Positions 5,659-29,118 are shown, counted from the stretch's first letter. The stretch: 64,000 nucleotides of DNA from Spirochaetia bacterium (GCA_965203055.1 OZ241863.1:4000001-4064000), one strand, 5' to 3'. The notes: generated by a model from the sequence alone, not told the origin. Program-made: numbers and translations.

Positions 5659-5684
5659 ACAGGTAACCTGCCGGGGGCAACTCG

Positions 5685-5934: not shown

Positions 5935-5944
5935 TGCTTCGTGC

Positions 5945-6754: not shown

Positions 6755-6775
6755 AGTATACCTCGTTAACGTAAG

Positions 6776-6798
6776 GAGGGTCCCCGCAGGGGACCCTC
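6776..6798. promoter_or_regulatory. perfect 10-bp hairpin in the 5' leader of the NYN gene
   Basis: GAGGGTCCCC-GCA-GGGGACCCTC, about 22 nt upstream of the TTG start. Confidence 0.5.
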
Positions 6799-6918
6799 TA
6801 TTGGGCCCACGCTCCAACCTAGGTATATTGCCGGGAGACGCTGGACTCTCATCAATATGCCCCACGACCGAACGGTAGTCAAGGGCTGGGCTGAGAACCT
6901 GACCTGACCATCTGCAGG

Positions 6919-9615: not shown

Positions 9616-9672
9616 GCGCCCAATCTACGGCAACCGGCGCGCCGGCGTCAATCCCGGGTTAGCATAAACATG

Positions 9673-9702
9673 TTGTAATACTACGACCCGATATGCTATA
9701 TT
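9673..9702 (+). promoter_or_regulatory. putative sigma70 promoter of the TA operon
   Basis: TTGTAA-18 nt-TATATT with an upstream TG, in an AT-rich gap. TAGCATA/TATGCTA inverted arms overlap it (possible operator). A GAGGAGG RBS follows. Confidence 0.45.
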
Positions 9703-9736
9703 TCTATTTATCATCACCGATGAGAGGAGGACGCTC

Positions 9737-10423: not shown

Positions 10424-10800
10424 GCACCGTGTTCGACAGCTCCGCGCTGCTTGCCGTCGTCTTCCGGGAGCGCGGGTCCGAGGCCGCGGCGCGGGCCCTG
10501 AACGGCGCCATGATCTCGGCGGTAAACGCCGCCGAGGTGGTCTCCCGGTTGGTGGATTCGGGCACCGGCGCCGCCGCCGCGCGGGCGGTCCTCCTGGCGT
10601 TCGGCCTGACGATCCGGCCATTCGACGCGGCGCTGGCAATCGACGCCGGCCTGCTGCGGGCGGCGACCCGCGAACTCGGCCTGTCGCTCGGCGACCGGGC
10701 GTGCATGGCGCTGGCGCGGCGCGAGCGGGCCAGAGTGATTACCGCCGATCGATCGTGGGCGGCGCTCGATCTCGGGGTCGAAATAGCGCTGATCCGCTAG
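10420..10800 (+). CDS. vapC: VapC (PIN domain) toxin
   Basis: VFDSSALLA, ISAVNAAEV, LSLGDRACMALA and VITADRSW. Confidence 0.93.
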   Translation: MSTVFDSSALLAVVFRERGSEAAARALNGAMISAVNAAEVVSRLVDSGTGAAAARAVLLAFGLTIRPFDAALAIDAGLLRAATRELGLSLGDRACMALARRERARVITADRSWAALDLGVEIALIR

Positions 10801-10888
10801 CCGGAACGAACGCCGCAATTCCGCGCCGCGGCCGGTTGCCGCCGGCGCAGGGCGGTTCGTAACTTGCCGCCGCCGGAGGTCGGGACTG

Positions 10889-13162
10889 ATGGCGACGAGG
10901 ACTGCTGGCGAAGAAGGGGGGCTGACCCCGCGGCGGCTCCGCGCGGCGCAGCGCAGCTTCACGCTGTTCGCGTTCCTCAACATGATCTCCTTCCAGTTGC
11001 TCACCGGCAACGTCATTGCGCTGTACGCGCTCCGGCTGGACGCCGGCGAACCGCTGATCGGCGTGCTCTACTCCTTCATGCCCCTGGCGTACCTGCTGCC
11101 GCTGCTCGGCCGGGCGGTCGTGCGGCGCATGGGGACGGTGCGCACCATGGCGGTGTTCTGGATCCTGCGCCAGCTCCTGATGGTGCCGCTCCTGTTCGCG
11201 CCGCTGGCCGCGGCCCGCGGCCGGCCCGAGATCGGCATCTGGCTGATCGTCGTCAGCGTGGTCGGCTTCAACCTGGCGCGCGGCATCGCCATGACCAGCT
11301 TCAACGCCGTCGTCGGCGCCATCACCGCGCCCGCCGAACGCGGTTCGTTTCTGGCGCGCGTCCAGCTCGTCTCCCACCTGGGAGCGATCGCCGCCGGGCT
11401 GGCCATGGGTCTCCTGCTGCAGCAGCGGTCGCCGCTGTTCCTGTTCACGCTGGTACTGAGCCTCGGCGTCGTCACCGGCCTGCTGGCCGCCCGCGAGTTG
11501 TTTCGCCTGCCGGAGCCGGCGGCGCTGGCCCCCCGCGGCAGCTTCGGGCCGGCGCTGCGCGACGCGTTCCGCCGCCGCGGCTTCCCGCGCTTCCTCGTGG
11601 TGCTGGCGCTCAACAGCTTCGTGACCGCCATGGCGCTGCCGTTCCTGCTGGTCTACGTGAAGCGGGTTCACGGGCTGGGCGACAACACCGCCATCCTGCT
11701 CGCCGCGGTGGGCTCGGTCGGCGCCATCGTCATGGCGCTGGTGAGCAGCTTCGTCATCGACCGGGTAGGCGCCTCGCCGCTGCTGCCGCTGTTCAACATC
11801 GTGGTGACGGTCACCATGCTGCTGGTAGTGGCGGCGCCGCCGCTGGCCGGCCCGGGCGCGGCCTGGATCTATCTGGGCGCCATCTTCTTCTTCGCCACGT
11901 TCGCGGCGTTCGGCACCGAAAACACGCACAGCGTCTACTACCTGAGCCTGATCCGGGCGGAGGAACGCCTGAACCTGGGCATCTTCGACCTGGTGGTGAT
12001 CGGCCTCGGCGCCATGCTGGGGTCGCTCGCCGGCGGCGCGGCGCTGGGCCGCCTGGCCTCGCTGCCGGCTCTGGAAACGGCCGACGCGTACCGCATCTAC
12101 TACGGCGCCATGGTGGTGGCCTATACCGTCATCCTGCTGCTCACCATGCGGCTGGACCGGTTGGGCGCCGTCTCGTTTCCCAACGTGCTGGGCATCTTCG
12201 TGTCGCCCCGGCAACTGCGGGCGCTGGCGCTGCTCCACCGGCTCAAGGCCAGCCGCACCCCGGCAGCCGCCGAGTACCTGATCCAGCGCCTCGGCGAGGT
12301 GCGCTCCGACCTGGCGGCGCCGGACCTGCTGCGGGGGCTGCGTTCGCCGCGCTTCACGGTGCGCTCGGAGGCGCTCGACGCGCTGTCGGAGGTGCCGTTG
12401 AACGACGCGGCGCGGGCGGCGCTGATCGCCGAGGTCGAGGAGCAGCCGTTCACCACCGCCTACCAGGCGGCCGAGCTGATCGGGCGCCGGGAGATGCGCG
12501 AGGCGGTGCCGGCGCTGCGCCGCGGCCTGGAGTCGGACGACGTGTTCCTGGCCGGCAAGTGCATGGTGGCGCTGGCGCGCCTGGGAGACGAGGCCAGCCT
12601 GGCGACCGTCGAACGGATGTATCAGGAGACCGGCAACCCGCGCCTGCTGATCCACGGCGCGGCGGCGCTGGAACTGTTCGGGCGGCCCGCCTCGCTGGCC
12701 ATCCTGCTGGGGCCGCTGGAACGCAACCCCACGCCCTTCGCGCGGGACGAGATCATCCTGGCCGCGGCCGGCATCCTGCGCATCGCCGATACCTTCTATC
12801 CGCTCTATCAGGAGTTCCTGGCCGAGCCGCGGCACGGGCTGGCGCTGCTTTCCGACTTCCTGGAGGAACGGCAGGAGCTGCAGCCGCGCGCCGCGGCCGC
12901 ACCGGCGGGGCACGCCGAAGTCACGGCCCTGGCGCGGCTGGTCGACGCTCCCGGCGCGTTCCCGGAGGCGGCGGAACGCGCCCTGGCGGCGACGCCGGTG
13001 GCGGTCGAGGGGACCGACCTGAGCGCCGTGCTGCGGGAGGCGCTGGCGCGGCCGCGCACCGGCGCGCTGGCGCAGTTCCGGTTCCTCGTCGCCACCGCGG
13101 CGGCGTGCTTCACGTGGCCGGCCCGCCCGCGCAGCCGGCGCCGCCCGCAGCCGCCGGGCTGA
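10889..13162 (+). CDS. MFS transporter fused to C-terminal HEAT repeats
   Basis: About 12 hydrophobic helices over the first ~430 aa, then HEAT-like repeats (SPRFTVRSEALDAL, AVPALRRGLESDDVFL). Confidence 0.8.
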   Translation: MATRTAGEEGGLTPRRLRAAQRSFTLFAFLNMISFQLLTGNVIALYALRLDAGEPLIGVLYSFMPLAYLLPLLGRAVVRRMGTVRTMAVFWILRQLLMVPLLFAPLAAARGRPEIGIWLIVVSVVGFNLARGIAMTSFNAVVGAITAPAERGSFLARVQLVSHLGAIAAGLAMGLLLQQRSPLFLFTLVLSLGVVTGLLAARELFRLPEPAALAPRGSFGPALRDAFRRRGFPRFLVVLALNSFVTAMALPFLLVYVKRVHGLGDNTAILLAAVGSVGAIVMALVSSFVIDRVGASPLLPLFNIVVTVTMLLVVAAPPLAGPGAAWIYLGAIFFFATFAAFGTENTHSVYYLSLIRAEERLNLGIFDLVVIGLGAMLGSLAGGAALGRLASLPALETADAYRIYYGAMVVAYTVILLLTMRLDRLGAVSFPNVLGIFVSPRQLRALALLHRLKASRTPAAAEYLIQRLGEVRSDLAAPDLLRGLRSPRFTVRSEALDALSEVPLNDAARAALIAEVEEQPFTTAYQAAELIGRREMREAVPALRRGLESDDVFLAGKCMVALARLGDEASLATVERMYQETGNPRLLIHGAAALELFGRPASLAILLGPLERNPTPFARDEIILAAAGILRIADTFYPLYQEFLAEPRHGLALLSDFLEERQELQPRAAAAPAGHAEVTALARLVDAPGAFPEAAERALAATPVAVEGTDLSAVLREALARPRTGALAQFRFLVATAAACFTWPARPRSRRRPQPPG

Positions 13163-16653: not shown

Positions 16654-16706
16654 CGGCCTCTCGCCGGCGCCGGGGATTCGGCAATGCGGTATGATTGGCA
16701 GCAGCC

Positions 16707-18029
16707 ATGAGTCACACCGAACCTCTGCGTGCAGCCGCGCCGCCGCGGCTTGCCATCTTCCTGGCGGCCGCGTGCCTGCTGTTGCTGGGGTGCACCGCAT
16801 CCATGCCGGCGCAGGACCCTGCGCCGGCTGCGCCGGACCCCGCGGACCCTGCGCCGGCTGCGCCGGACCCCGCGGCCCCTGCGCCGGCTGCGCCGGACCC
16901 CGCGGCCCCTGCCGGCGCGCCCAACCACATCGCCGAGCTCGCGGCCGCGGTCGAGATCTGCCGGGTGCCCAATCCGCATCACCCCGACTCCGCGTTCGAC
17001 GTCACCAAGTCCTCAAAGGACCGCCATGGCGACTACTACATGACGTGGCAATGCCGGGAACCGTGTGACGACTGGCGCCAGTGCCACGTAGAGGCGCGCG
17101 CCAAGCGCGGCACCGTGCGCCGGGCGCTGGCGTTCGTGGTCGACGGCATGGGCGGCCACGTGGCCTACACCACCAGCCAGCGCGGCGACCGGACGCTGCT
17201 GCTGCACGGCGGCATGGGCGGCACCAACTACCTGCAGCCCCTGGCCGAAGCGATCGAGCGGAATTCGGACGCCGGCACCGTCATGGTGCGCTGGGAGCCG
17301 GGCTTCGAGCGGGTCTGGGGCTGGTTCACCCGCACCTCGGCGGCAGCGTCGGGGATGCCGGCGGCCAACAAGCGCGTCGCCAGCGTCATCGCCTGGGTGC
17401 ACGAGCACCTGGCCGGGCCCGGCGAGTTCGGCACCGTCGGCTGCAGCATGGGCACGGTGGCCACGTTCGGCGCCGTCTACTGGCACGACGTGGACGAGGT
17501 GGTGGACTACCAACTGTTCAGCGGCGGCCCCGCCCTGTGGGACATCAACGCCGGCTGCGGCCTGCGCACCTACTCCGAGGGCCGGTGCGACGTGGACGCC
17601 GGCGTCACCTGCAGCACCGACGCCGACTGCAGCCAACTCGGGCCGGGCAGCCGCTGCGACGTGCCCCGTCCGATACCGCCGTTCCGGTTGTACCGGCAGG
17701 TGGTCAATCACGTGCACGCCACGCCGGCCTGCGCCATTCCGGGCGACGGCGAAGACTTCATCCCCTACGCCCCCTTCGACCGGAGCAGCTTCGCCTTCAG
17801 CGGCGGCGACTGGGACCTCGACCATCCGGTGGACTTCGCCATGGACGTGCGCGGCGGCGACGGGGACGAGAACTGGGCGTTGGGAGACACGATGCGCGTG
17901 TTCGAAGACATCCGGTCGGCGGCCGGACATGACAAGCGCTGGCACGCCACCGTCAACTCCAACCACTGCGCGGCGCTGTTCGACGGCACCGCGCTGGAGA
18001 TGATCCTGGAGCGCATGGACCTGCGCTGA
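16707..18029 (+). CDS. secreted lipoprotein with putative alpha/beta-hydrolase core and Cys-rich insert
   Basis: Lipobox-like LLLGC, Pro/Ala repeat linker, LLLHGG, VGCSMG and a C-terminal His (NHC). Confidence 0.6.
   Translation: MSHTEPLRAAAPPRLAIFLAAACLLLLGCTASMPAQDPAPAAPDPADPAPAAPDPAAPAPAAPDPAAPAGAPNHIAELAAAVEICRVPNPHHPDSAFDVTKSSKDRHGDYYMTWQCREPCDDWRQCHVEARAKRGTVRRALAFVVDGMGGHVAYTTSQRGDRTLLLHGGMGGTNYLQPLAEAIERNSDAGTVMVRWEPGFERVWGWFTRTSAAASGMPAANKRVASVIAWVHEHLAGPGEFGTVGCSMGTVATFGAVYWHDVDEVVDYQLFSGGPALWDINAGCGLRTYSEGRCDVDAGVTCSTDADCSQLGPGSRCDVPRPIPPFRLYRQVVNHVHATPACAIPGDGEDFIPYAPFDRSSFAFSGGDWDLDHPVDFAMDVRGGDGDENWALGDTMRVFEDIRSAAGHDKRWHATVNSNHCAALFDGTALEMILERMDLR
16814..16912 (+). repeat. 30-bp coding tandem repeat, about 3.3 copies
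   Basis: GG(A/C)CCCTGCGCCGGCTGCGCCGGACCCCGC at 16814, 16844 and 16874, with a partial copy at 16904. Confidence 0.9.
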
Positions 18030-18046
18030 GCGCCCGGCAGGCGTCC

Positions 18047-18991
18047 ATGACCTTCAACACGACCAACACCACCTTTCGCCAGTTGATGGGCAACGGGCTG
18101 AGCTATCGCGTGCCGCCGTTTCAGCGCGACTACTCCTGGGGACCCGACGAGTGGGACGACCTGTGGAACGACCTCGCGGAGCCGGCCCACTACCTGGGGT
18201 ACTTGGTACTGCAATCGACCGACAACCGGACGTTCGCGATCATCGACGGACAGCAGCGCATGACCACGCTCAGCCTGCTGATGCTGGCCGCGGTGGCGCA
18301 CCTCACCGAACTGGCCGCTCCGGACACCGCCGACGACCCGGAACTGCGGCGCGCCGCGCAGCTGCGCGCCAACTACCTGGGTTACCTCGACCCGGTGAGC
18401 CTGGTGCCGCGCTCCAAGCTGACGCTCAACCGCAACGACGACCGCTTCTACCAGGACTACCTGGTGCCGCTCGAACGCCTGCCGCAGCGGGGATTGAATC
18501 ACCACCTCGGCGGAGCGGCGGACACGATCAGGGAACTGCGCAGCGTCTACCCTGACGACGGCGAGTTCCGGGCGGCCTTCGCCGACAAGGAGCTGCGCAC
18601 CACCAGCAGCCGCAACCGCAAGGTGGCGCGGTATCTGCTGTTCCGGCTGGAACGCCACGTATCAGGAGAGGACTTCGACTTCGAGAGCGCGCAGTACGAC
18701 CTGGAGCACGTGCTGCCGGAGTGGCCCGGCGAAGCCTGGGAGCAGTTCGACGACCGGCAGCGCGAATCGTTCACCTACCGGCTCGGCAACCTCACGCTGC
18801 TGGCCGCGGCCGACAACCGCGCCGCGGGAAACGCCGACTTCGCCGCAAAGCGCCCCACCTACGGCGACAGCCGATTCGCCGTTACGCGCAAGATCGCGGG
18901 AGATTACGATGCCTGGACCGTCGACAAGATCGCCTCCCGGCAGCGCTGGATGGCGCGCCAGGCGACCAGCATCTGGCGCCTGGACTTCTGA
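18047..18991 (+). CDS. DUF262 + DUF1524 (GmrSD-like, HNH) protein, internally shortened
   Basis: VPPFQRDYSW, IIDGQQR, DLEHVLP and LGNLTLL; only 314 aa and no FxxxN motif seen. Confidence 0.82.
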   Translation: MTFNTTNTTFRQLMGNGLSYRVPPFQRDYSWGPDEWDDLWNDLAEPAHYLGYLVLQSTDNRTFAIIDGQQRMTTLSLLMLAAVAHLTELAAPDTADDPELRRAAQLRANYLGYLDPVSLVPRSKLTLNRNDDRFYQDYLVPLERLPQRGLNHHLGGAADTIRELRSVYPDDGEFRAAFADKELRTTSSRNRKVARYLLFRLERHVSGEDFDFESAQYDLEHVLPEWPGEAWEQFDDRQRESFTYRLGNLTLLAAADNRAAGNADFAAKRPTYGDSRFAVTRKIAGDYDAWTVDKIASRQRWMARQATSIWRLDF

Positions 18992-18996
18992 ATCCG

Positions 18997-21900
18997 ATGG
19001 ACGCCAGCGAGAAGTTTCAGCATCTGTTGCGGGAGCTCTTTCAGTTCGATTGCGCTGACCTGGATTTCGGCATCTACCGGATCATGAACCACAAGCGCGG
19101 CGTGATCGAGAATTTCATCGCCGAAGACCTGCCGCGCACTGTCGCGGACGAGCTGCAGCGCGGCCCGCTGGCCGATCAGGCGCAGGCCGTCGAGCGCCTG
19201 CAGGAGCTTGCCCGGCAGATCCGGGATGTCCTGGGCGGGAATGCGCTCGACGCAGACGGCAACTTGGCGGTGACGTATCGAGACACCCCTTTGGGCAGGA
19301 AATACCTTCGGGCGAAGCGGACCGGCGGCCTCAGCCGGGACACGCTCGAGGCAGCCATCTACAACCATCTGTATGCGTTCTTCAGCCGCTACTATCAGGA
19401 CGGTGACTTCATCTCGAAGCGGCGCTACTCCGGAAGCCAGCGCTACGCCATTCCCTACAACGGCGAAGAGGTCTATCTGCACTGGGCGAACAAGGACCAG
19501 TACTACGTAAAATCCGACGAGCATTTCCGCAACTACACCTTCACGCGGCAGGGCGTCAGCGTGCACTTCACGGTACGGAACGCGAACGTGGAACAGAACG
19601 ACGTCAAGGGCGACAAGCGGTTCTTCCTGCCGCAGGTCGCAGAGATCACCTGCGATGCGGAAGCCGGCCGTGTGCTGATCCCGTTCGAATACCGGCCCCT
19701 GACCGGCCGGGAGGAGACCGTCTACGGCCGCAGGAACCAGCAAGAAGCGATCATCCGCTCCGCCCTGACCGAGATTCCCCGACGGTTGCGCGGCGCCGAC
19801 GCGGCGGTAGCGGCGCTGACGGCCGAGCGCCACCGCAACGGCGAAGGCCGGCCGGTTGATTTCCTCGAGTACCACCTCCGCCGCTACACGCGGCGCAATT
19901 CCTCCGACTTCTTCGTTCACAAGAACCTGCGGGGGTTCCTCACACAGGAGCTCGATTTCTATCTGAAGAACGAGGTGCTCGACCTGGATGAAATCACCGC
20001 CGTCGGCGACGACGTGGCCGAAGGTTGGTTCCAGCTCATGCGGACGATCAAGGCGGTGGGCGGGCGCATCATCGAGTTTCTGGATCAGATCGAGAGCTTC
20101 CAGAAGATGCTGTGGGAGAAGCGCAAGTTCATCACCGAGACCCAGTACTGCATCACCATCGGCACCATCGACAGGAGCTTCTATCCCGACATCGCCGCCT
20201 GCGACCCGCAGTGGGCGGAATGGAAGGGACTGTTCCAAATCGACGAGGATGCGGTGAATCTGTTCAACTGCAATGGCGACCGCACTGACCGGCGCGTGTC
20301 CTTCCTGGAAACCCATCCGACGCTGGTACTCGATACCCGGCACTTCGATTCCGGCTTCGTGGATCGGTTGCTCAACGACGTGGATCACGTCGACGATCGA
20401 ACCGATGGTCTGTTGATTCACAGCGAGAACTTTCAGGCGCTCGGCCTGTTGCGCGAATCCTACCGCAACAGGGTCGAATGCGTATACTTGGATCCGCCAT
20501 ACAATACCGGTGACTCGGAGATTCTCTACAAGAACGAGTATCTTCTTTCTTCCTGGTTGACGATGATGGAAAACCGACTCTCTCTCATGATGGGATTACT
20601 CAACGAGGATCCCGTTCTATTCATCGCGATTGACGATTTTGAGATGGTCGATCTCTGTGGACTGATCGACAAGCACTATCCGTTCTTCCGTCGCGAGATG
20701 ATCATCGTCAATCACCACCCCCAGGGCGGCAAGGCGACGCTGTTGGCGAACACCCATGAGTACATGATCAGTTGCGTAAGCAAGGCTTCAGGTCGGACCT
20801 TGGTGGGACGTATCGCGAAAGACGGCGATGAACTTCGACCATTCAAGCGCAGCGGGACCGCTGCGAGCAATTTCCGCTACGCGCGGCCGAACAGCTTCTA
20901 CTCCTTACTGGTCGACCCGGAGACCAGGGCCGTCGTCGGCGCGGAGCCTCCTCCGGCAAGGAATAGTAACGAGTACCCGCGCGGCAATACCGAAGAAGGA
21001 TATGTCCGAGTCTATCCATTGGGAACTCAGGGTGAGGAGCGGGTCTGGCGCCGCTCGTATGAGTCGTGCCTGCCGCTGATCAGAAGCGGCAAGCTGCAGT
21101 GTAGCAACGGCATGACCATCTACCACCGCATCGAAGTGCAGGATCGCAGCGCCGCATTGTTCAGCAACTGGGTCGATTCACGATATAATGCCGGCACCTT
21201 CGGCGCCAATCTGCTTGGCGACATTATCGGAGCCAACAACTCTTTTTCCTACCCGAAGTCGGTTCACACCGTCGGCGACGCCATCTTCGGAGCAGGTATC
21301 GAAGACGACTCCTGTTGTGTCGATTTCTTCGCCGGATCGGGTACGACCGGGCACGCGGTAATCAATCTGAACCGTGAGGATGGCGGAGATCGCAAGTTCA
21401 TCCTGGTCGAGATGGGCCGCCATTTCGATACGGTATTGATGCCGCGCATCAAGAAAGTGACGTTCACCCCGGAGTGGAAAGATGGGAAGCCGGTGCGGAT
21501 GGCGACCCGGGACGAGGCTGAACGCGGCCCGCGCATCGTCAAGTACCATCGCCTGGAGAGCTACGAGGACGCGCTGAACAACATCGCTTTCGACGATGCG
21601 GCCGGTCAGCAGGCGCTGCGGTTCGACGATTACCTGCTCAAGTACCTGCTCAGGTGGGAGACGCGCACCAGCGCGACCCTGCTGAACGTGGAGAAGCTGA
21701 ATCGGCCGTTCGATTACCGGCTGGACGTCCATGCCGACGGCCGGCGTCACGAACGGGTAGCGGACCTGCCGGAGACCTTCAACTACCTGCTGGGCCTGCG
21801 CGTGCAAACGCGCCGCGTGCACCACGACGAAGGGCGCCGCTATCTGGTCTATCGCGGCAGCGTCGAAGACCGGACGACGGTGGTCATCTGGCGGGAGACG

Positions 21901-22068
21901 GAGGGCTGGCGGAAGGAAGAGCTGATTCGGGACAAGGAGTTCGTGACCGAACGGGACCTGACCGCCGGAGCGGACGCGGTGTTCGTCAACGGCGATTCCT
22001 TCATCCCGAACGCGAAGGCCCTGGAGCCGGTGTTCAAGGCGCGGATGTTCGCGCCGTTGGGAAACTGA
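18997..22068 (+). CDS. mod: Type III R-M methyltransferase subunit (Mod1)
   Basis: LFQFDCADLDFGIYRIMN N-terminus, YLDPPYN (motif IV), YPKS, DFFAGSGTTGHAV (motif I) and LESYEDALNN; lies upstream of res. Confidence 0.92.
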   Translation: MDASEKFQHLLRELFQFDCADLDFGIYRIMNHKRGVIENFIAEDLPRTVADELQRGPLADQAQAVERLQELARQIRDVLGGNALDADGNLAVTYRDTPLGRKYLRAKRTGGLSRDTLEAAIYNHLYAFFSRYYQDGDFISKRRYSGSQRYAIPYNGEEVYLHWANKDQYYVKSDEHFRNYTFTRQGVSVHFTVRNANVEQNDVKGDKRFFLPQVAEITCDAEAGRVLIPFEYRPLTGREETVYGRRNQQEAIIRSALTEIPRRLRGADAAVAALTAERHRNGEGRPVDFLEYHLRRYTRRNSSDFFVHKNLRGFLTQELDFYLKNEVLDLDEITAVGDDVAEGWFQLMRTIKAVGGRIIEFLDQIESFQKMLWEKRKFITETQYCITIGTIDRSFYPDIAACDPQWAEWKGLFQIDEDAVNLFNCNGDRTDRRVSFLETHPTLVLDTRHFDSGFVDRLLNDVDHVDDRTDGLLIHSENFQALGLLRESYRNRVECVYLDPPYNTGDSEILYKNEYLLSSWLTMMENRLSLMMGLLNEDPVLFIAIDDFEMVDLCGLIDKHYPFFRREMIIVNHHPQGGKATLLANTHEYMISCVSKASGRTLVGRIAKDGDELRPFKRSGTAASNFRYARPNSFYSLLVDPETRAVVGAEPPPARNSNEYPRGNTEEGYVRVYPLGTQGEERVWRRSYESCLPLIRSGKLQCSNGMTIYHRIEVQDRSAALFSNWVDSRYNAGTFGANLLGDIIGANNSFSYPKSVHTVGDAIFGAGIEDDSCCVDFFAGSGTTGHAVINLNREDGGDRKFILVEMGRHFDTVLMPRIKKVTFTPEWKDGKPVRMATRDEAERGPRIVKYHRLESYEDALNNIAFDDAAGQQALRFDDYLLKYLLRWETRTSATLLNVEKLNRPFDYRLDVHADGRRHERVADLPETFNYLLGLRVQTRRVHHDEGRRYLVYRGSVEDRTTVVIWRETEGWRKEELIRDKEFVTERDLTAGADAVFVNGDSFIPNAKALEPVFKARMFAPLGN
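19010..20370 (+). repeat. outer inverted repeat arm (mod1 5' conserved region), pairs with ~26925-28098
   Basis: Near-identical to the reverse complement of the mod2 5' region; includes a 62-bp perfect match (20166-20227 vs 27036-27097). Boundaries approximate. Confidence 0.9.
21451..22060 (+). repeat. inner inverted repeat arm (mod1 3' conserved region), pairs with ~25239-25828
   Basis: Perfect stretches of 53 bp (21517-21569) and 55 bp (21670-21724) versus mod2; identity ends at GCGCCGTTGG. Confidence 0.9.
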
Positions 22069-22070
22069 CG

Positions 22071-25000
22071 GTGCCCCGGCGAAGGGGCGTCAGCGGCGCC
22101 GCCCGCGAGTCCGGCGCGGCGCCGCACGTGAGGCTGGAACAGCGGCTGGTGCTGCTGTCCTGGCTGAACGGGCTGCTCGGCTACCGGAGCAACCGTGACC
22201 TGCTGCGCGATCTGAAGGAGGCCCCGGAAGGGTTCGACGCGGCCGGACGCAGCCATCTCTACCACCGGCTGACGGCGCGCGGCGAGCTGCAGGTGCCGGC
22301 GGCCGATCTGGCCCGATACGACGACAACGTCCGCGCGCACCTTGACGCCATGAACGCCCGCCGCTCCGAGCCGATCACGCTGCGCTACTTTCAGCACGCC
22401 GCGCTCCTCCATACCGAGCTGTTCCTGGATCGATACTTCCATGGCCGGGGTGAGCTGATCCGCTCGCTGAACCGGTTCGCGGCGGACCGGAACGCTACCC
22501 GGCCGTTCGCCGACCCCGCCCCGCGCGACGCCGACTTCACGCAATCGGACCTGAAGAAGCTGGCGTTCTGGATGGCGACCGGCAGCGGCAAGACGCTCAT
22601 CATGCACGTCAACTACCGCCAGTTCCTGCACTACCACCGCCGGCCGCTCGACAACGTCCTGCTGATCACGCCGAACGAGGGCTTGAGCGAGCAGCATCTG
22701 GCGGAGCTGGCCGCCTCGGACATCCGGTGCCGGAGCTTCGACCCGGACGAGAGCGGTCTCATGACGGCCGGGGAGGATGAGGTCCGGGTCATCGAGATCA
22801 CCAAGCTGGTGCAGGAGAAGCGCGGCGGCGGCGTGAGCGTGCCGGTGGAGGCCTTCGAGGGCAACAACCTGATCTTCGTGGACGAGGGGCACAAGGGCTC
22901 CGGCGGCGCCGCGTGGCGCAGCTTCCGCGACGCGCTGGGCGAGACCGGCTTCACGTTCGAGTACAGCGCCACCTTCGGGCAGGCGCTGAGCGCGGCGCGC
23001 AACGACCAGCTCACCGCCGAGTATGGCAAGTCGATCATCTTCGACTACTCGTACCGCTACTTCCACGGCGACGGATACGGCAAGGACTTCCACGTGCTCA
23101 ACCTGCAGGAGGAAGCGGCGGAGGATAGAACCGACCTGCTGCTGCTCGGCAACCTGCTCTCTTTCTACGAGCAGCGGCGGCTGTTTGCGCGGCAGGCGGC
23201 GGCGCTGCGCCCGTACCACCTGGAACGCCCGCTGTGGGTGTTCGTCGGCAGCACCGTGAACGCGGTCTACACCGAGTTCGGCCGGAAGCGCAGCGACGTG
23301 CTCACGGTAGTCCGATTCCTGCACCGCGTATTGGAGAACCGGCGGGGCTGGGTGGTCGGGGCCATCGAGGAGCTGCTCGCCGGCCGGAGCGGTCTGACCG
23401 CGCCGGACGGACGGGACGCGTTCGGCGATCGATTCAAGTATCTGCGCGAAGAATCCCTGTCGGCCGCGGCCGTGTACCGGGACCTGCTCGCTACGGTGCT
23501 GCACGCGCCGGCGGGAGGCGGCCTGCACCTGTGCGCCATCCGCGGCAGCGCCGGTGAGATCGGACTGAAGGCGAGCGGCGCCGAACACTACTTCGGACTG
23601 ATCTACGTCGGCGACGCCGCCGCCTTCAGGAAACTCGCCGCGGCCGACGACTGCGGAATGACGTTGGAAGAGGACGTGGTCAGCGGCTCGCTGTTCGACG
23701 CCATCGGCCGTCCGGCCACCACCATCGACGTGCTGATCGGGGCGAAGAAATTCATGGAGGGCTGGAACTCGTGGCGGGTGGCGAGCATGGGACTGCTCAA
23801 CATCGGCCGCAAGGAGGGATCGGAGATCATCCAGCTCTTCGGGCGCGGCGTGCGCCTGCGGGGCAGGGGACGCAGCCTGAAGCGAAGCGCGGCGCTGGCC
23901 GGCCGGCATCCGGCCCATCTCGGCCTGCTGGAGACGCTCAACGTGTTCGCCGTGCGCGCCAACTACATGACGCAGTTCCGCGCGTACCTGGAACGGGAAG
24001 GGATCGAGACCGAAGGTGACGTCGAGTTGCCGCTCGGCATCAGGACGAACCGGGACTTCCTGCGCCGGGGCCTGGTCGTACCTCGGGTGCCGGAGGAGCG
24101 GAACTTCGCCGCCGAGGCGTATCTCCTGCTGGAGCCGGAGCGGGACCTCCGGGTGCGCGTGGACCTGTCGCTCAAGGCGCAGTCCCTCGAAAGCGGCGCC
24201 GGCGGCCTCACCGCGGTTGCGATGCGCGGCGGCCGGGAGGTGGAAATACCGGACGAAAGTCTCGAGCTCGTCGATTGGCAGCGGGTCTACCTGGAGCTCC
24301 TCGAATACCGGGAACGCAGGGGCTACGCCAACCTCGTCATTCGGCCGGAAACGGCCCGGACGATCATGGAGACGTCCCACCCCGGCCGGCTCTACCGCCT
24401 GACCGCCGACGAGTCAATTGTCGCGCCGACTTCCTTCGCCGGCGCCGAACCGCTCCACGAGGCGGTGCTCTCCATCCTGCGGCACTACCTGGACCGGTTC
24501 TATCGCGTCCGCCGGGAGCGCTGGGAGGCGCAGCACATGGTGTACGCGGAGCTCGACGAGGAGCATGCGAACTTCCGGGACTACACCGTCCGGATCGCCC
24601 GCAGCGAAGTCGAGCTGATCGACGCGATTCAGAAGCTCATCGCCGAAGCGGACCGCATCTACCGGCAGGAGACGCAGGAGTTGCCGGCCGTTCACTTCGA
24701 CCGCCACCTGTACCAGCCGCTGCTGGTGGAGCGCGGCGCCAAGGTACGGAGCGACCCGCCGGGCCTCAACGAGGCGGAACGTCGGTTCGTCGAGGATCTG
24801 CGGCAGTACTGTTTGGCGGAGCGCGACGGATCGCTCGCCGGCAAGGAAATCTATCTCCTGCGCAACCTGAGCAAGGGGAAGGGGATCGGATTCTTCGAGC
24901 GGCGCGGCTTCTATCCCGACTTCATCCTGTGGATCAAGGCCGGCTCCGCGCAGCGCATCGTCTTCGTCGAACCGCACGGCCTGCTGCACGCCGAGGCGTA

Positions 25001-25265
25001 CCGGCATGACGACAAGGCGCGGCTGCACGAATCCCTGCCGGGACTGGCCGCGGCGATGGCGTCACGCACCACGCTGAAGAACGTGACCCTCGACTCCTTC
25101 ATCGTCTCCGCGACCCCCTACGAAGAGGTGCGCACCAGATATGATGACGGCACCTGGGACCGGGAGCGTTTCGGAGACCGGCACATCCTGTTCCGCGAAG
25201 CCGATCCCCGCGGCTACGTCGCCCGGATCGTCACCCCTCCAACGGCGCGAACATCCGCGCCTTGA
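22071..25265 (+). CDS. res: Type III R-M restriction subunit (SF2 helicase + PD-(D/E)xK-like nuclease)
   Basis: MATGSGKT, VDEGHK, YSATF, EGWN, QLFGRGVRL and FYPDFILW...FVEPHG; GTG start 2 nt after the mod1 stop (alternative 22128). Confidence 0.92.
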   Translation: MPRRRGVSGAARESGAAPHVRLEQRLVLLSWLNGLLGYRSNRDLLRDLKEAPEGFDAAGRSHLYHRLTARGELQVPAADLARYDDNVRAHLDAMNARRSEPITLRYFQHAALLHTELFLDRYFHGRGELIRSLNRFAADRNATRPFADPAPRDADFTQSDLKKLAFWMATGSGKTLIMHVNYRQFLHYHRRPLDNVLLITPNEGLSEQHLAELAASDIRCRSFDPDESGLMTAGEDEVRVIEITKLVQEKRGGGVSVPVEAFEGNNLIFVDEGHKGSGGAAWRSFRDALGETGFTFEYSATFGQALSAARNDQLTAEYGKSIIFDYSYRYFHGDGYGKDFHVLNLQEEAAEDRTDLLLLGNLLSFYEQRRLFARQAAALRPYHLERPLWVFVGSTVNAVYTEFGRKRSDVLTVVRFLHRVLENRRGWVVGAIEELLAGRSGLTAPDGRDAFGDRFKYLREESLSAAAVYRDLLATVLHAPAGGGLHLCAIRGSAGEIGLKASGAEHYFGLIYVGDAAAFRKLAAADDCGMTLEEDVVSGSLFDAIGRPATTIDVLIGAKKFMEGWNSWRVASMGLLNIGRKEGSEIIQLFGRGVRLRGRGRSLKRSAALAGRHPAHLGLLETLNVFAVRANYMTQFRAYLEREGIETEGDVELPLGIRTNRDFLRRGLVVPRVPEERNFAAEAYLLLEPERDLRVRVDLSLKAQSLESGAGGLTAVAMRGGREVEIPDESLELVDWQRVYLELLEYRERRGYANLVIRPETARTIMETSHPGRLYRLTADESIVAPTSFAGAEPLHEAVLSILRHYLDRFYRVRRERWEAQHMVYAELDEEHANFRDYTVRIARSEVELIDAIQKLIAEADRIYRQETQELPAVHFDRHLYQPLLVERGAKVRSDPPGLNEAERRFVEDLRQYCLAERDGSLAGKEIYLLRNLSKGKGIGFFERRGFYPDFILWIKAGSAQRIVFVEPHGLLHAEAYRHDDKARLHESLPGLAAAMASRTTLKNVTLDSFIVSATPYEEVRTRYDDGTWDRERFGDRHILFREADPRGYVARIVTPPTARTSAP

Positions 25266-28101
25266 ACACCGGCTCCAGCGCCTTCGCGTCCGGGATGAAG
25301 GAATCGCCGTTGACGAAGACCGCGTCCGCCCCGGCGGTCAGGTCCCGTTCGGTCACGAACTCCCTGTCCCGGATCAGCTCCTCCTTCCGCCAGCCCTCCG
25401 TCTCGCGCCAGATGACCACCGCGGTCCGGTCTTCGACGCTGCCGCGATAGACCAGATAGCGGCGCCCGTCGTCGTGGTACACGCGGCGCGTCCGCACGCG
25501 CAGTCCCAGCAGGTAGTTGAAGGTCTCCGGCAGATCCGCGCCGGCATCGACGCCCAGCCGGTAATCGAACGGCCGATTCAGCTTCTCCACGTTCAGCAGG
25601 GTCGCGCTCGCGCGCGTCTCCCACTTGAGCAGGTACTTGAGCACGTAGTCGTCGAACTGCAGCGCCCGCTGGCCTGCCGCATCGTCGAACGCGATGTTGT
25701 TCAGCGCCTCCTCGTAGCTCTCCAGGCGATGGTACTTGACGATGCGCGGGCCGCGTTCAGCTTCGTCCCGGGTCGCCGTCCGCGCCGGCTTCCCGTCCTT
25801 CCACTCCGGCGTGAACGTGACCTTCTTCATTCGCGGCAGGAGAATGGCATCGAACTGGCCGCCGACTTCGACCAGGACGAACCTGCGCCGCGCGCCGTCG
25901 TCCCGGTTCAGGCGCATGACCGCGTGGCCGGTCGTGCCCGAGCCGGCGAAGTAATCCAACACCAGGCCGTCGGTTCCGTCCGCGGCGGCGCCGATCAGGT
26001 CGGCGTAGAATGACACCGGGTGCGCGTAGGGGAAGTCGTTCAACCCGAGCGAATCGAGCTCCGATTTGCCCCTCCTCGCATCCTGAAGCACGGAGGGAAG
26101 CTGACGGCTCGATGATTCGCGCAGCAACCGTTTCTGGCGTGGCTGCGTACTCTCGTCCGCTCCGAACAGTATTTCTCCCTGCGCCATCATCTCGCGCAGC
26201 GTAGCCGGCGTTCTCGAGAAGCCGTTGGGCGGAACCGGGCACGGCCGGCCGGTCGCCGGGTGTATCAAGGGCTCGAAGAACTTGGGATCCGTTCTCGGTT
26301 CCGGCGCCCGCAGACTCACGCTCGTGTATACCCTGCCCTCGTCGTCGAGATAGCGATACGCCTTCTCGCCGCCGCTCAGGGCATCGTTCCGGCGTATCCA
26401 GTCGGCGAATTGCGCTCTTGCCTGCTGCAGGGAAGCGGGATACTTGCGCACCAACTCCTTCGCCCGGTCCAGAATCGACTGCGCGTGACTCGTCCGCAGG
26501 TTGAGCGCGCGGTCCGACTTCGTTCTCCATATGACGTACTCGTGCTGAATCGCAATCCCGCCGCCCCCGGTCATCGGATTCCTCTTGTCCCAGACGATCG
26601 TGCCGGCGTTGGGGATGCCCAGTCGCTCGAACAGCAGGTGGAGCCGTTCGTACTCGTTCTCGTCGATGTGGCAGACCAACGAACCGCGGTCGTTCAGGAG
26701 CGCCGCGGCGCGGCGCAGGTGCTGCTCCATCATCGTCAGCCAGCTCGAATGCCGGTATGCGTTCTTGTACAGAAAACCGCTCGTCTGCGTATTGTAGGGA
26801 GGATCGACGTGTATGCAGCTTATCGTTCTCCGGTATGCGGCGTGCAGCAAGCTCAGTGCCTGGGTGTTGTCGCCATGCATCAGCAGACCGTCCAGCACGT
26901 CGTCCAGATCGTCGATACTGCCGATCAGGCGGTCGACGAAGTCGGGCGCGAAATGCCGGGTGTCGAGTACCAGCGCCGGATGGGTTTCCAGGAAGGTCAG
27001 GCGCCGGGCCGTGCGGTCGTCGATGCGGAACAGCTCCTTCCATTCCGCCCACTGCGGGTCGCAGGCGGCGATGTCGGGATAGAAGCTCCTGTCGATGTTG
27101 CCGACCGTGATGCAGTACCAGGTCTCGGTGATGAACTTGCGCTTCTCCCACAGCATCTTCCGGAAGCTCTCGATCTGATCCAGGAACTCGATGATCCGCC
27201 CCCCGACCGCCTTGATCGCCCGCATGACCTGGAACCAGTCTTCGGCCCGGCTCTCCCCGGCGGCCGCCAGCTCGTCCAGATCGAGCACCTCGTTCTTCAG
27301 ATAGAAATCGAGCTCCTGGGTGAGGAACCCCCGCAGGTTCTTGTGGATGAAGAAGTCGGAGGCGTTGCGCCGCGTGTAGCGGCGGAGGTGGTATTCCAGG
27401 AAGTCGACCGGCCGCCCGTCGCCGTTGCGGTGGCGCTCCGCCGTCAGCGCTGCCAGCGCCGCGCCGGCGCCACCCAACCGCCGGGGAATCTCGGCCAGGG
27501 CGGAGCGGATGATCGCCTCCTGCCGGTTCCTGCGGCCGTAGAAGGTCTCCTCCCGGCCGGTCAGGGGCCGGTATTCGAACGGGATCAGCACGAGCCCGGC
27601 TTCCGCGTCGCAGGTGATCTCCTCGACCTGCGGCAGGAAGAACCGTTTGTCGCCCTTGACGTCGTTCCGTTCCACGTTCGCGGCCCGCACCGTGAAGCGC
27701 ACGGTGACGCCCTGCCGCGCGAAGGCGTAGTCGCGAAAGTGCTCGTCCGACTTGACGTAGTACTGGTCGTCGTTCGCCCAGTAGAGATAGACCTCTTCGC
27801 CGTTGTAGGGAATGGCGTAGCGCTGCCGCCTGGAGTAGCGCCGCTTCGAGATGAAGTCGCCGTCCTGATAGTAGCGGCTGAAGAACGCGTGCAGATGGTT
27901 GTAGATGGCCGCCTCGGGCGCCTGCGCCTGGCCGGCGAGCGGACCGCGTTGCAGCTCCTCCGCGATGGTGCGCGGCAGGTCCTCGGCGATGAATGCCTCG
28001 ATCACGCCGCGCCGGTGGTTCATGATCCGGTAGATGCCGAAATCCAGGTCGGCGCAGTCGAACTGAAAGAGCTCGCGCAACAGATCCTGGAACTTATCCA
28101 A
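25231..28101 (-). CDS. mod: second Type III Mod (Mod2), convergent with res, with a different target-recognition region
   Basis: Paralogue of mod1 with HVDPPYN, YAHP and DYFAGSGTTGHAV. Start uncertain (TTG 28101 or ATG 28137). The 3' end overlaps res by 35 bp. Confidence 0.88.
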   Translation of the reverse strand: MDKFQDLLRELFQFDCADLDFGIYRIMNHRRGVIEAFIAEDLPRTIAEELQRGPLAGQAQAPEAAIYNHLHAFFSRYYQDGDFISKRRYSRRQRYAIPYNGEEVYLYWANDDQYYVKSDEHFRDYAFARQGVTVRFTVRAANVERNDVKGDKRFFLPQVEEITCDAEAGLVLIPFEYRPLTGREETFYGRRNRQEAIIRSALAEIPRRLGGAGAALAALTAERHRNGDGRPVDFLEYHLRRYTRRNASDFFIHKNLRGFLTQELDFYLKNEVLDLDELAAAGESRAEDWFQVMRAIKAVGGRIIEFLDQIESFRKMLWEKRKFITETWYCITVGNIDRSFYPDIAACDPQWAEWKELFRIDDRTARRLTFLETHPALVLDTRHFAPDFVDRLIGSIDDLDDVLDGLLMHGDNTQALSLLHAAYRRTISCIHVDPPYNTQTSGFLYKNAYRHSSWLTMMEQHLRRAAALLNDRGSLVCHIDENEYERLHLLFERLGIPNAGTIVWDKRNPMTGGGGIAIQHEYVIWRTKSDRALNLRTSHAQSILDRAKELVRKYPASLQQARAQFADWIRRNDALSGGEKAYRYLDDEGRVYTSVSLRAPEPRTDPKFFEPLIHPATGRPCPVPPNGFSRTPATLREMMAQGEILFGADESTQPRQKRLLRESSSRQLPSVLQDARRGKSELDSLGLNDFPYAHPVSFYADLIGAAADGTDGLVLDYFAGSGTTGHAVMRLNRDDGARRRFVLVEVGGQFDAILLPRMKKVTFTPEWKDGKPARTATRDEAERGPRIVKYHRLESYEEALNNIAFDDAAGQRALQFDDYVLKYLLKWETRASATLLNVEKLNRPFDYRLGVDAGADLPETFNYLLGLRVRTRRVYHDDGRRYLVYRGSVEDRTAVVIWRETEGWRKEELIRDREFVTERDLTAGADAVFVNGDSFIPDAKALEPVFKARMFAPLEG

Positions 28102-28129
28102 ATTGACGTGTAGGGGCTGATATTGGGCT

Positions 28130-28153
28130 TTACACATCAACTTGGATGTATAA
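28130..28153. promoter_or_regulatory. AT-rich imperfect palindrome at the 5' end of mod2
   Basis: TTACACATC-AACTTG-GATGTATAA: 9-bp arms with 1 mismatch and a 6-bp spacer. Confidence 0.4.
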
Positions 28154-28227
28154 GCCGGGCGCGGGTCGTTGCCGCTCCTGCCGGCGGACGGGTCCGCCGG
28201 CAGGAGGGAAGATCAGCCGAGCGCCGG

Positions 28228-29118
28228 CTAGTCGGCGTGGAAGATGGAGAACATCATCCGCCGCGCGTGGCTCGACAGGGAGTCGTAGTTCTGCCAACCG
28301 CTGTATTGCTCGAGCTTGATGGACCCCGGCAGCGTAGCGATCAGCCCGAACACGGCGAACGGCCCGCCCTCTTCCTGCGCCTTCGTCATCTGCCCCATCA
28401 CTACGTCGTAGAGATCGTTGTAGTACTGGGCATTGTCACGCAGCACCTGCGGGTCGGTCGACACCGAGTGGGTGGTCAGGGCGTGTTCCAAATCCCATTC
28501 GCCGATGGTATTCAGAATCCTGCGGGTTCCGGTGAAGTTCTTGTCATCAACCCAGTCGGAGCCGGTGAGCGCCTGGTCCTCGTACAGGTCGGCGGTCAAT
28601 ACCACCTTCTGCCGCGGCAGGTACACCACGGTGGTCGCATCGCCGTCGCCGGGGCCGAGGTAGTGCAGTTCCACCGGCGTATCGCCGACCATGATCCGCT
28701 TGTAGTTGATGAAGCTCTCGAACGATTGCGGCACGTCATTGAACGGCGCCTCCGCCAGCGCGAATACCGGCCGGCAGTTGACGTGACAATGCACCGTCGC
28801 GTCCGGGAACAGACTGGTCCCGCCGGCGTGATCGAAATGCTCGTGCGTCAGCACGACGTGCGAGATCGGACTGTCGGTGAGCGTGCCGACGAAGTCCTGC
28901 AGCATCGGCCCCCGCAGGTTGTTTGCCGGCTCGGTCACCAGCACCTCCTCTCCCGAAACGACGACCAGGCTGCCGTAGCCCAGCGCGAACCAGTAGTATA
29001 CGCCGTCGGCAAGCTGGTTGGTGACCGGCGGCGGCATCTGCTGCGCGTGCAGGTTTACCGTCACCCCGGCCAGCGCCGCCGCCAACAAGGCGGCCCCTTT
29101 CTTGACTATCTTGGTCAC
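28228..29118 (-). CDS. secreted MBL-fold metallo-hydrolase
   Basis: Signal peptide; THEHFDHAGG (HxHxDH); GAGGAGG RBS before the GTG. Confidence 0.88.
   Translation of the reverse strand: MTKIVKKGAALLAAALAGVTVNLHAQQMPPPVTNQLADGVYYWFALGYGSLVVVSGEEVLVTEPANNLRGPMLQDFVGTLTDSPISHVVLTHEHFDHAGGTSLFPDATVHCHVNCRPVFALAEAPFNDVPQSFESFINYKRIMVGDTPVELHYLGPGDGDATTVVYLPRQKVVLTADLYEDQALTGSDWVDDKNFTGTRRILNTIGEWDLEHALTTHSVSTDPQVLRDNAQYYNDLYDVVMGQMTKAQEEGGPFAVFGLIATLPGSIKLEQYSGWQNYDSLSSHARRMMFSIFHAD

Follow-up and report, generated by a model that had tools for sequence, protein, structure and literature searches.

Two Inverted Mod Paralogues around a Single Res Gene in a Spirochaetia Bacterium: A Candidate Two-Specificity Type III-like Locus

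Introduction

When a single res gene lies between two mod paralogues in inverted orientation, does the locus work as an invertible switch, or does it serve two fixed specificities? The question is raised by a locus of a Spirochaetia bacterium (GCA_965203055.1), found in a stretch of 64,000 nucleotides (OZ241863.1:4000001-4064000; hereafter the window, with positions counted from its first letter). An earlier note on this DNA proposed a switch, in which crossovers between the similar arms of the two mods would exchange the target-recognition domain (TRD) placed before res and so change the methylome. Its alternative was that both Mods are expressed and use one common Res. No description of phase variation by inversion in Type III systems was found in the literature searched and, as far as that literature shows, an inverting Type III system would be the first. 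The locus belongs to a large Type III-like family present in many phyla, with Mods of ~1000 aa and Res of ~1060 aa, of which no studies were found in the same literature.

Organization of the Locus

The layout mod1(+)-res(+)-mod2(-) given by the note stands, and all three open reading frames are intact. The features are as follows.

18047-18991, + strand: GmrSD-like gene (DUF262 + DUF1524), 5 nt ahead of mod1
18997-22068, + strand: mod1, 1023 aa, a Type III-like DNA methyltransferase of the beta class, with a long N-terminal arm and TRD1
22071-25265, + strand: res, SF2 helicase-type Type III restriction subunit of 1064 aa
25231-28137, - strand: mod2, second Mod paralogue, 968 aa from its ATG, with a short N-terminal arm and TRD2, convergent with res
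28172-28204, - strand: strong G+C-rich hairpin, flanked by the start of mod2 and by the stop (28228) of an MBL-fold hydrolase gene upstream of it

As in Type III operons, a mod gene is adjacent to res on its upstream side: mod1 stops at 22068 and, after 2 nt, res begins with a GTG at 22071. This is taken as the true start because homologues begin with MPRRRG, and their alignment also fixes the C-terminus. At its other end, the last 35 nt of res overlap the 3′ end of mod2 in antisense; for mod2, a TTG at 28140 is a further possible start. Two mod paralogues with different TRDs are therefore found beside a single res, since tblastn identifies one res in the window and no second res fragment near mod2.

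The possibility that the res/mod2 junction is an assembly chimera was rejected on two grounds. The arms differ in sequence, and a Res from an independent assembly (P0004, 98% identical) has the same C-terminal tail, encoded antisense to a mod 3′ arm; hence the junction is not an artefact.

The GmrSD-like gene, which matches Pfam GmrSD_N (3.2e-22) and GmrSD_C (1.2e-29), probably opens the mod1-res operon. Its match to the PADLOC HEC-06/Orf5 profiles is restricted to the two ends (residues 2-151 align with profile positions 6-162, residues 157-313 with positions 405-561 of ~560). No homologue of this gene adjoins any of 80 related loci searched by tblastn.

The Res protein contains a ResIII helicase domain (Pfam, 1.7e-10) and matches PADLOC REase_III PDLC03654 (1.7e-144), with neither a Pfam nuclease domain nor a PDB sequence match; a PD..E.H-like stretch (YPDF...VEPHG) was recognised by eye alone. 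It has 7827 homologues at E<=0.001, and the nearest locus, 79% identical in Res, is in a Spirochaetia MAG (hereafter L001).

The Mod Proteins and Their Variable Cores

Both Mods have DPPYNT followed by FAGSGTTGH, which is the beta-class order of motif IV, TRD, and motif I, with DPPY and FAGSG intact in mod2. Matches to Pfam N6_N4_Mtase (6.2e-19 for mod1, 5.5e-26 for mod2) and to PADLOC MTase_III (PDLC03646, 5.7e-188 for mod1; 4.8e-212 for mod2), together with PDB sequence matches of mod1 to three solved Type III Mods (6k0w, 7dsu, and 4zcf; Mods of H. pylori, Mbo45V, and EcoP15I), bear out the assignment of the interval between the two motifs to the TRD. The two proteins had been described as mostly unrelated in this interval, and they are indeed 27.8% identical there (72/259 aa).

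20374-21321, + strand: variable core of mod1 (DPPY to FAGSG, TRD1), G+C 52-60% against 69% for the window
25957-26922, - strand: variable core of mod2 (TRD2), 98% identical to P0244, P0245, and P0246

In L001, three genes on one strand follow each other: modA (TRD2, short arm), modB (TRD1, long arm), and res. The TRD core of mod1 is 81.2% identical to that of modB (dN/dS 0.11) and the core of mod2 is 80.3% identical to that of modA (dN/dS 0.18). Of the informative sites of the TRD region in the comparison of L001 with the window, 111 favor orthology and 0 favor grouping within genomes. Judged against these orthologues, both cores are under purifying selection. In mod2, such selection also preserves the C-terminal arm, the methyltransferase core, and the greater part of the N arm (arm dN/dS 0.2-0.3).

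Upstream of the methyltransferase motifs, the Mods carry an N-terminal domain of ~450 aa with no Pfam match; for residues 1-460 of Mod1, the nearest clusters in the ESM Atlas are also without a Pfam family. The mods hold no simple-sequence repeats beyond two weak ones (12 nt, 2 copies), which sets them apart from repeat-driven phasevarions.

A Long-Mod/Short-Mod Pair Conserved among Relatives

The occurrence of the same TRD pair in tandem before one res in L001 shows that two Mods with one Res form a conserved module, the long-TRD1/short-TRD2 pair being found in both genomes. P0127 and P0250, presumably from a common genome, make a third long/short pair, with arms 92% and 95% identical. The locus thereby defines a conserved long-Mod/short-Mod pair. 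Among 197 full-length Mod matches, the short arm is confined to TRD2-type cores (P0244-6, P0247, and P0250, together with two very divergent proteins, P0334 and P0350), and none of the matches of the TRD1 search has it. Most related loci are simpler. Where a mod is seen ahead of res, 68 of the 69 loci have a single Mod, and in 33 of these 69 the gap between mod and res is <=150 nt. A tblastn search of plasmids with Mod1 matched 128 records, each in one place, with no two-Mod locus.

These observations lead us to prefer, with a probability of roughly 55%, the alternative of the earlier note: a chromosomal Type III-like locus that is fixed, in which two functional Mods with different TRDs share one Res, mod2 presumably being expressed and Res presumably serving both. 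In such a system, mod1 would be cotranscribed and translationally coupled with res behind the GmrSD-like gene, and mod2 would be a separate convergent gene. Both Mods would be made, each methylating its own asymmetric motif and each recruiting the single Res, which would give the cell two restriction specificities at once. The long-arm TRD1 Mod and the short-arm TRD2 Mod would be an inherited module, tandem elsewhere, and a rearrangement in this lineage would have put mod2 in inverted orientation downstream of res, in a layout stable since then. The likeness of the arms would reflect common ancestry plus occasional gene conversion, with no sign of programmed inversion.

Some features of mod2 count against this reading. 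The minus strand of 28130-28235 folds at -60.2 kcal/mol (z = -7.1; 0/200 shuffles as good), and the hairpin within it, which has no U-tract, might act as a terminator. As it leaves only ~34 nt before the mod2 ATG, expression of mod2 could be poor or dependent on read-through. A scan of 17900-28400, with a model that may not be that of the host, tells little: it gave 0 sigma-70 promoters, none for mod2, and 2 terminator-like sites, both within the arms, whereas shuffled sequences had more of the latter.

It is unlikely, though conceivable, that mod2 is a Res-independent methyltransferase, in which a loss of 52 residues in the N arm is the sign of a Mod that has ceased to assemble with Res and serves for protection or regulation only, or is the remnant of a system that lost its res. 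A loss conserved in the second Mod could indeed mean that this Mod works unlike an ordinary one: among lineages with two Mods, only the second has the short arm, mod2 in the window has no transcriptional coupling to res, and the boundaries of the deletion lie ~8 residues apart between the clades of the window and of L001, so that the segment could have been lost twice. However, the short Mod heads the modA-modB-res string in L001, purifying selection extends over most of the remaining protein, and the window lacks the res fragment that a decayed second system might have left near mod2.

Similarity between the Inverted Arms

The fixed two-Mod reading has also to account for the arms, which are as follows (percentages are DNA identities).

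19009-20373, + strand: mod1 5′ arm, an inverted pair with 26923-28098, comprising I4, I1, and I5; dS 0.31-0.35
19009-19194 / 27913-28098: inverted repeat I4, 186 nt, 88%
19343-20246 / 27017-27920: inverted repeat I1, 904 nt, 90%
20270-20373 / 26923-27026: inverted repeat I5, 104 nt, 82%
21322-22060, + strand: mod1 3′ arm, an inverted pair with 25239-25956, comprising I2 and I3
21322-21739 / 25539-25956: inverted repeat I2, 418 nt, 87%
21760-22060 / 25239-25539: inverted repeat I3, 301 nt, 95%

The five segments make two nested arm pairs that bracket alternative specificity modules, which is the geometry of an inverting switch. Both arms reported in the note are thus real, although the 3′ arm begins ~130 nt earlier than was given there. 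Relative to mod1, mod2 has deletions of 52 codons and 11 codons in the 5′ arm and of 7 codons in the 3′ arm.

The repeats of inverting hsdS loci are identical or nearly so, whereas the arms of the window are 82-95% identical, with an overall dS of 0.19-0.35 and no near-identical core for crossing over. Perfect stretches of 53-62 bp had been pointed out, and the longest are of 62, 55, and 53 bp. When mismatches are shuffled within codon positions, these runs are not over-long for 90% identity (P=0.09 and P=0.17 for the 5′ and 3′ arms, respectively). With a divergence of 8-13% and no unusually long identical core, the arms look unlike repeats that recombine often. Diverged repeats invert rarely in an experimental system: in lambda (PMC2327257), RecABCD-dependent inversion between inverted repeats falls from 3e-4 for identical repeats to ~1e-6 at 22% divergence, the diverged oxa pairs of the assay having 800 bp of partial homology, and a 1000-fold drop at 4% divergence is cited there for the E. 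coli chromosome.

Some exchange has nevertheless left its mark. The arms of the window are 84-90% alike in amino acids, against 77-79% for the tandem arms of L001, and within the 3′ arm identity is higher over the res-proximal 301 nt (94.7%) than over the 417 nt next to the TRD (86.8%; Fisher P=0.0005). Hence some recombination between the inverted arms, by gene conversion or crossover, has taken place.

The timing of this exchange may be read from the arm trees. W_mod1 groups with P0124 (support 100/98 and 98/94 in the N-arm and C-arm trees) and W_mod2 with P0244-6 (100/99 and 95/95), both groups lying within a joint clade (98/98 and 96/94). Among the close database relatives, arms of the mod1 and mod2 types are therefore reciprocally monophyletic. 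It follows from this grouping by TRD inside a joint clade that homogenisation of the arms preceded the split of these strains and that no swap has followed. Smaller exchanges are found in the relatives, as P0244 has mod1-type stretches and P0245 has an 11-aa segment absent from mod2; hence exchange continues at some rate. In P0252, TRD2 is joined to arms like those of L001 modB and P0128 (88-92% identical), which is a TRD swap. Taken together, the evidence points to rare recombination between the arms.

Would Inversion Switch the Methylome?

In the switch model, the nested repeats recombine, by RecA or by a trans-acting enzyme, often enough to create subpopulations that differ in res, in GmrSD-mod1 promoter context, or in arm-TRD combinations, as a Type III counterpart of the inverting hsdS loci. 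Its topology holds: inner, outer, and double inversions made in silico from the two nested repeat pairs produce, with the present layout, four configurations, and each inversion yields two in-frame full-length mods (973-1018 aa), one per TRD, with an identical res in all products. This viability of the three alternative arrangements speaks for the model, as do the closeness of the window arms and of their res-proximal 301 nt, the mosaic patches in P0244 and P0245, and the swap in P0252. A further point in its favor is that spnIII is described as inverting without any known site-specific recombinase (PMC6620402).

The same simulations weigh against its consequence. In all four configurations both mods are complete open reading frames with their own starts, so that there is no silent copy; no configuration silences either TRD, and the methylome would therefore stay the same under inversion alone. 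As had been noted, no recombinase gene is seen in the window: a Pfam scan of 53 ORFs (14 + 39) gave no domain of a recombinase, integrase, or transposase. Diverged inverted repeats, moreover, seldom invert under RecABCD (PMC2327257). None of the 4 close cluster representatives to which this test was confined (P0124 and P0244-6) has the predicted chimeric arm/TRD combinations, and the mod-res-inverted-mod synteny that was to be sought in related genomes is seen only in the window, being found in 0/64 related loci with >=3 kb downstream of res. In L001 the same pair is tandem, an arrangement in which inversion between the arms is impossible. The proposal of a switchable methylome is thus unsupported, and we regard the model as rather improbable. 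Homologous inversion between the arms is physically possible though presumably rare, and would leave the encoded TRDs unchanged. For inverton scans this is a caution: inverted paralogous specificity genes with similar arms are insufficient, and silent-copy logic and near-identical repeats count too.

A long and a short Mod might instead join in a Mod(long)-Mod(short)-Res complex with two TRDs, of composite specificity or with a division of labour, as the recurrence of the pairing, directly in the window and L001 and by inference in P0127/P0250, would allow; but this is quite doubtful, given that long-arm TRD1-type and TRD2-type Mods also occur as the sole Mod beside res, nearly all loci being single-Mod, and each type is therefore self-sufficient elsewhere. 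Equally doubtful is a recombinase-independent inverting system, where crossovers of rare to moderate frequency would flip res and the TRDs between the GmrSD-coupled site and a weaker, hairpin-insulated site, so that the specificity able to restrict, and the one serving mainly for protection, would vary between subpopulations.

Comparison with Known Systems

The fixed two-Mod system preferred here has its closest parallel in mycoplasmas. M. bovis PG45 has three mods and one res (Mbo45ORF167P; 10.64898/2026.05.01.722158), and in M. agalactiae 5632 one res follows two tandem mods (M1/M2.Mag5632ORF1570P; PMC9465063). As described in these accounts, the loci share with the window several Mod paralogues that vary in a central TRD and are conserved on its 5′ and 3′ sides, beside one res that the last mod touches or overlaps. 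In the mycoplasmas the mods are tandem, of ~65 kDa, and switched on and off by AG/GA repeats, whereas those of the window encode proteins of ~1000 aa, are free of such repeats, and include one in inverted orientation downstream of res. The mycoplasma loci are read as giving several specificities at once through a common Res, which by analogy each Mod of the window could use. If this reading is true, the design of several Mods with one Res extends from mycoplasmas to the large Type III-like family.

The inverting Type I hsdS loci (SpnD39III/spnIII, S. suis, E. faecalis, and others) resemble the window in having inverted paralogous specificity genes with conserved repeats around variable TRDs, and in both cases recombination between repeats would shuffle the parts (PMC7394358). 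In the description given there, these loci have one expressed hsdS, silent partial copies, and usually a recombinase of their own, in contrast with the two complete genes of the window, where no recombinase was found.

Type III enzymes are Mod2Res1 complexes that hemi-methylate an asymmetric motif and, with ATP, cleave DNA bearing two unmethylated sites in inverse orientation. The canonical EcoP15I and EcoP1I share with the window the order mod then res, a beta-class Mod (DPPY, TRD, FxGxG), and an SF2 helicase Res; the window Mod matches the chain 4zcf_A of this type at 2.1e-13. They differ from the window, which has two Mods, a long extra N-terminal domain, and a Res with no sequence match in the PDB. 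Type III mods of Helicobacter, Haemophilus, and Neisseria also have conserved arms and a hypervariable TRD, exchanged by homologous recombination ("domain movement" and allelic TRD diversity), according to the accounts cited (PMC3467074, PMC3077401, PMC3983042, PMC1557822). The swap in P0252 is of this kind, and in those accounts the exchange is evolutionary and between alleles, not a switch acting at the locus.

A distant relative of mod1 is found on the E. coli plasmid pEC316_2 (32.7% identity over 99% of the query), in a string of genes for an HTH protein, an SNF2-related protein, a DNA methyltransferase, and a DEAD/DEAH helicase. By description, this string resembles the three-gene layout of the Eco86II/BspHIV type, which has an extra 5′ gene for a helicase-like ATPase (Murray et al. 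2021, PMC8259958). The window departs from that layout, as the position of the SNF2 gene is taken by the GmrSD-like gene.

The Two-Mod Locus

The window has a G+C content of 68.9% and contains no N. Its Type III-like restriction-modification locus comprises two paralogous methyltransferase genes (mod1 and mod2) and a single res, arranged with their neighbors as follows.

Genes and features at the mod1–res–mod2 locus
16695–18029, lipoprotein-like gene
18047–18991, GmrSD-like DUF262/DUF1524 gene
18997–22068, plus strand, mod1 (1023 aa)
22071–25265, plus strand, res (1064 aa)
25231–28137, minus strand, mod2 (968 aa)
28172–28204, strong hairpin, very stable by RNA folding
28228–29118, minus strand, MBL-fold hydrolase gene

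The start of res is placed at 22071 because its homologs begin with MPRRRG. The two Mods have Pfam N6_N4_Mtase and PADLOC MTase_III matches, and a PDB sequence search matched Mod1 to three Type III Mods of known structure, 6k0w, 7dsu, and 4zcf. For Res, the matches are Pfam ResIII and PADLOC REase_III, and the PDB sequence search gave none; the Res family is very large and well conserved (7827 proteins at E ≤ 0.001, with 66–80% identity across several phyla). Only ~34 nt part the hairpin from the mod2 ATG, and expression of mod2 is therefore uncertain. The tails of res and mod2 overlap by 35 nt (25231–25265) without an intervening terminator, so that convergent transcription could couple their expression; the DNA coding for the C-terminal 8 residues of Res is antisense to the mod2 C-terminus.

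Inverted Arms and Simulated Inversions

The earlier note had described the mods as similar inverted arms around unlike cores, with perfect stretches of 53–62 bp, and both points hold. A repeat search found five inverted-repeat segments, which together make two arm pairs.

Inverted arm pairs
19009–20373 versus 26923–28098, inverted, 5′ arms (outer pair), 82–90% identical
21322–22060 versus 25239–25956, inverted, 3′ arms (inner pair), 87–95% identical, with a 7-codon deletion in mod2

The 5′ pairing is interrupted by two deletions in mod2, of 52 and 11 codons. Between the DPPY and FAGSG motifs, the cores, which hold the target-recognition domains (TRD1 in Mod1, TRD2 in Mod2), share 27.8% protein identity. 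The longest perfect runs between arms measure 62, 55, and 53 bp. When mismatches were shuffled within codon positions, a run at least as long as the observed longest arose in 9% (5′ arm) and 17% (3′ arm) of trials; hence, there is no specially preserved crossover core. The TRD1 region (20374–21321) has a G+C content of 52–60%, versus 62–65% for the TRD2 region (25957–26922) and 69% for the window, a hint that TRD1 was acquired more recently from a foreign source.

Crossovers simulated in the 55-bp run (inner pair), in the 62-bp run (outer pair), and in both bear out the four configurations that the earlier note expected from two nested repeat pairs. Every product has two in-frame mods of 973–1018 aa, one per TRD, and an unchanged 1064-aa res, which lies on the opposite strand after one crossover and on the plus strand again after two. 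Neither TRD is removed or truncated in any configuration, and the switchable methylome that had been proposed does not follow from inversion alone, as both TRDs stay whole throughout. In inverting hsdS loci, switching works since only one site is expressed, according to PMC7394358; a methylome switch here would need a large expression difference between the two mod sites. The earlier note had stated that no recombinase gene is present, and a Pfam scan of 53 window ORFs found no recombinase domain; the mods contain no simple repeats.

An Inherited Pair of Mods

Scanning genomes with Res yielded 80 related loci, which were searched by tblastn with the Mod arms, both TRDs, Res, and GmrSD. A mod precedes res on the same strand in 69 loci; in the remaining 11, the contig breaks off at res or no more than ~1.1 kb upstream of it. 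These searches found no mod downstream of res in the 64 loci having at least 3 kb there, and neither an opposite-strand mod match nor a GmrSD homolog in any of the 80. Among plasmids, Mod1 matches 128 records, once each. Two mods occur at exactly one of the 80 loci, L001 (Spirochaetia MAG; Res identity 79%), and there they are in tandem.

Genes at locus L001, all on the same strand
3910–6816, modA
6886–9963, modB
9968–13129, res

Inversion between arms is impossible in L001. Its modA shares TRD2 with mod2 (80.3% identity) and also lacks the 52-residue segment of the N-terminal arm, with deletion boundaries offset by ~8 residues; its modB shares with mod1 both TRD1 (81.2%) and the long arm. Of the informative sites in the TRD region, 111 favor orthology and none favors grouping within genomes. 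Among 197 full-length Mod matches from two TRD-directed searches, the short arm is restricted to TRD2-type cores (P0244-6, P0247, P0250, and two very divergent proteins) and is absent from all TRD1-search matches. Orthology and this distribution together indicate that a long-TRD1 Mod, a short-TRD2 Mod, and one Res form an inherited module. A third genome with the pair is suggested by two database Mods, P0127 (long arm with TRD1) and P0250 (short arm with TRD2), whose arms are 92% and 95% identical. Core dN/dS against orthologs is 0.11 and 0.18; therefore, selection maintains both mod genes. A further homolog, P0252 (1044 aa), combines TRD2-type specificity with arms 88–92% identical to the arms of L001 modB and P0128, both of which carry TRD1: a clean exchange of TRDs on a single arm background.

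Old and Rare Exchange between Arms

The C arms are 89.9% identical within the window versus 75–78% to their L001 orthologs, and the N arms 84.5% versus 75–82%; informative sites favor within-genome grouping by 15:2 and 12:9, respectively. Trees of 18 Mods group the window-clade arms of both TRD types in a single clade (98/98, 96/94), and mosaic patches are present in relatives. Within the 3′ arm, the res-proximal 301 nt are 94.7% identical versus 86.8% in the remainder (P = 0.0005). Hence, the paralogs have exchanged sequence. This exchange is old and rare: arm dS is 0.19–0.35, and within the joint clade mod1-type (W_mod1 of the window, P0124) and mod2-type (W_mod2, P0244-6) arms are reciprocally monophyletic (support 95–100%).

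Readings and Precedents

The reading we favor, with a probability of about 0.55, is that of a fixed Type III-like system with two specificities; the two Mods would share the single Res, and descent plus sporadic gene conversion would keep the arms alike. The closest precedents described are the several-mods, one-res mycoplasma loci of M. bovis PG45 (10.64898/2026.05.01.722158) and M. agalactiae 5632 (PMC9465063), whose mods, by these accounts, are tandem and repeat-switched. A second methylase acting independently of the one Res is unlikely. Inversion switching at a low rate is somewhat less likely still. In lambda, RecABCD-driven inversion between inverted repeats is put at 3e-4 for identical copies and ~1e-6 at 22% divergence, the diverged oxa pairs having 800 bp of partial homology (PMC2327257); a 1000-fold drop at 4% divergence on the E. 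coli chromosome is cited there. All four close cluster representatives keep parental linkage (N-terminus, 52-aa indel, TRD, 7-aa indel, C-terminal tripeptide), and the chimeric lengths and ends predicted from simulated crossovers were not found among the listed Mod matches. A literature search (including PMC9881135, PMC7394358, and PMC7672463) found neither inverted mod paralogs around res nor inversion-driven Type III switching, though supplements could hold cases. A long/short Mod heterodimer is the least probable.

Variation in Related Loci and Neighboring Genes

The mod–res gap exceeds 1 kb in 18 of the 69 related loci. The one such gap scanned, in L008 (6045–9974), carries a HepT-like gene together with two Fic-domain genes, so the R-M operon has taken up cargo there. 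In L011 (2018–4635) and L061 (5772–8049), the mod N-terminal arm lies 2.3–2.6 kb from the remainder of the gene, in what looks like a disrupting insertion. On Klebsiella and E. coli plasmids, as on the E. coli plasmid pEC316_2 (L081, NZ_CP018955.1 26873–41992), distant Mod relatives (32.7% identity over full length) occur in a string of HTH regulator, SNF2-related protein, DNA methyltransferase, and DEAD/DEAH helicase, bounded by IS30 and IS26. The string resembles the Type III arrangement of three genes described by Murray et al. 2021.

In the window, the GmrSD-like protein has only 314 aa and aligns to the first ~160 and last ~160 positions of the ~560-residue PADLOC HEC-06/Orf5 profiles, as would be expected if it lacked the central ~240 residues. 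The lipoprotein-like gene has high GC3, no Pfam match, a signal peptide ending in LLGC, PAPAAPD-type repeats, and a 30-nt tandem repeat (16814–16912; 3.3 copies, 98% match). A D12-class (Dam-like) DNA methyltransferase gene (2069–3181), an AAA_14/DUF4143 ATPase gene (4251–5522), and a minus-strand ORF with low GC3 (0.58) and an NYN domain match (5945–7591) may together be another defense-related patch. Three successive plus-strand ORFs without Pfam match (44283–46218), with GC3 of only 0.46–0.54 versus ~0.9 in adjoining genes, may be a small foreign island.
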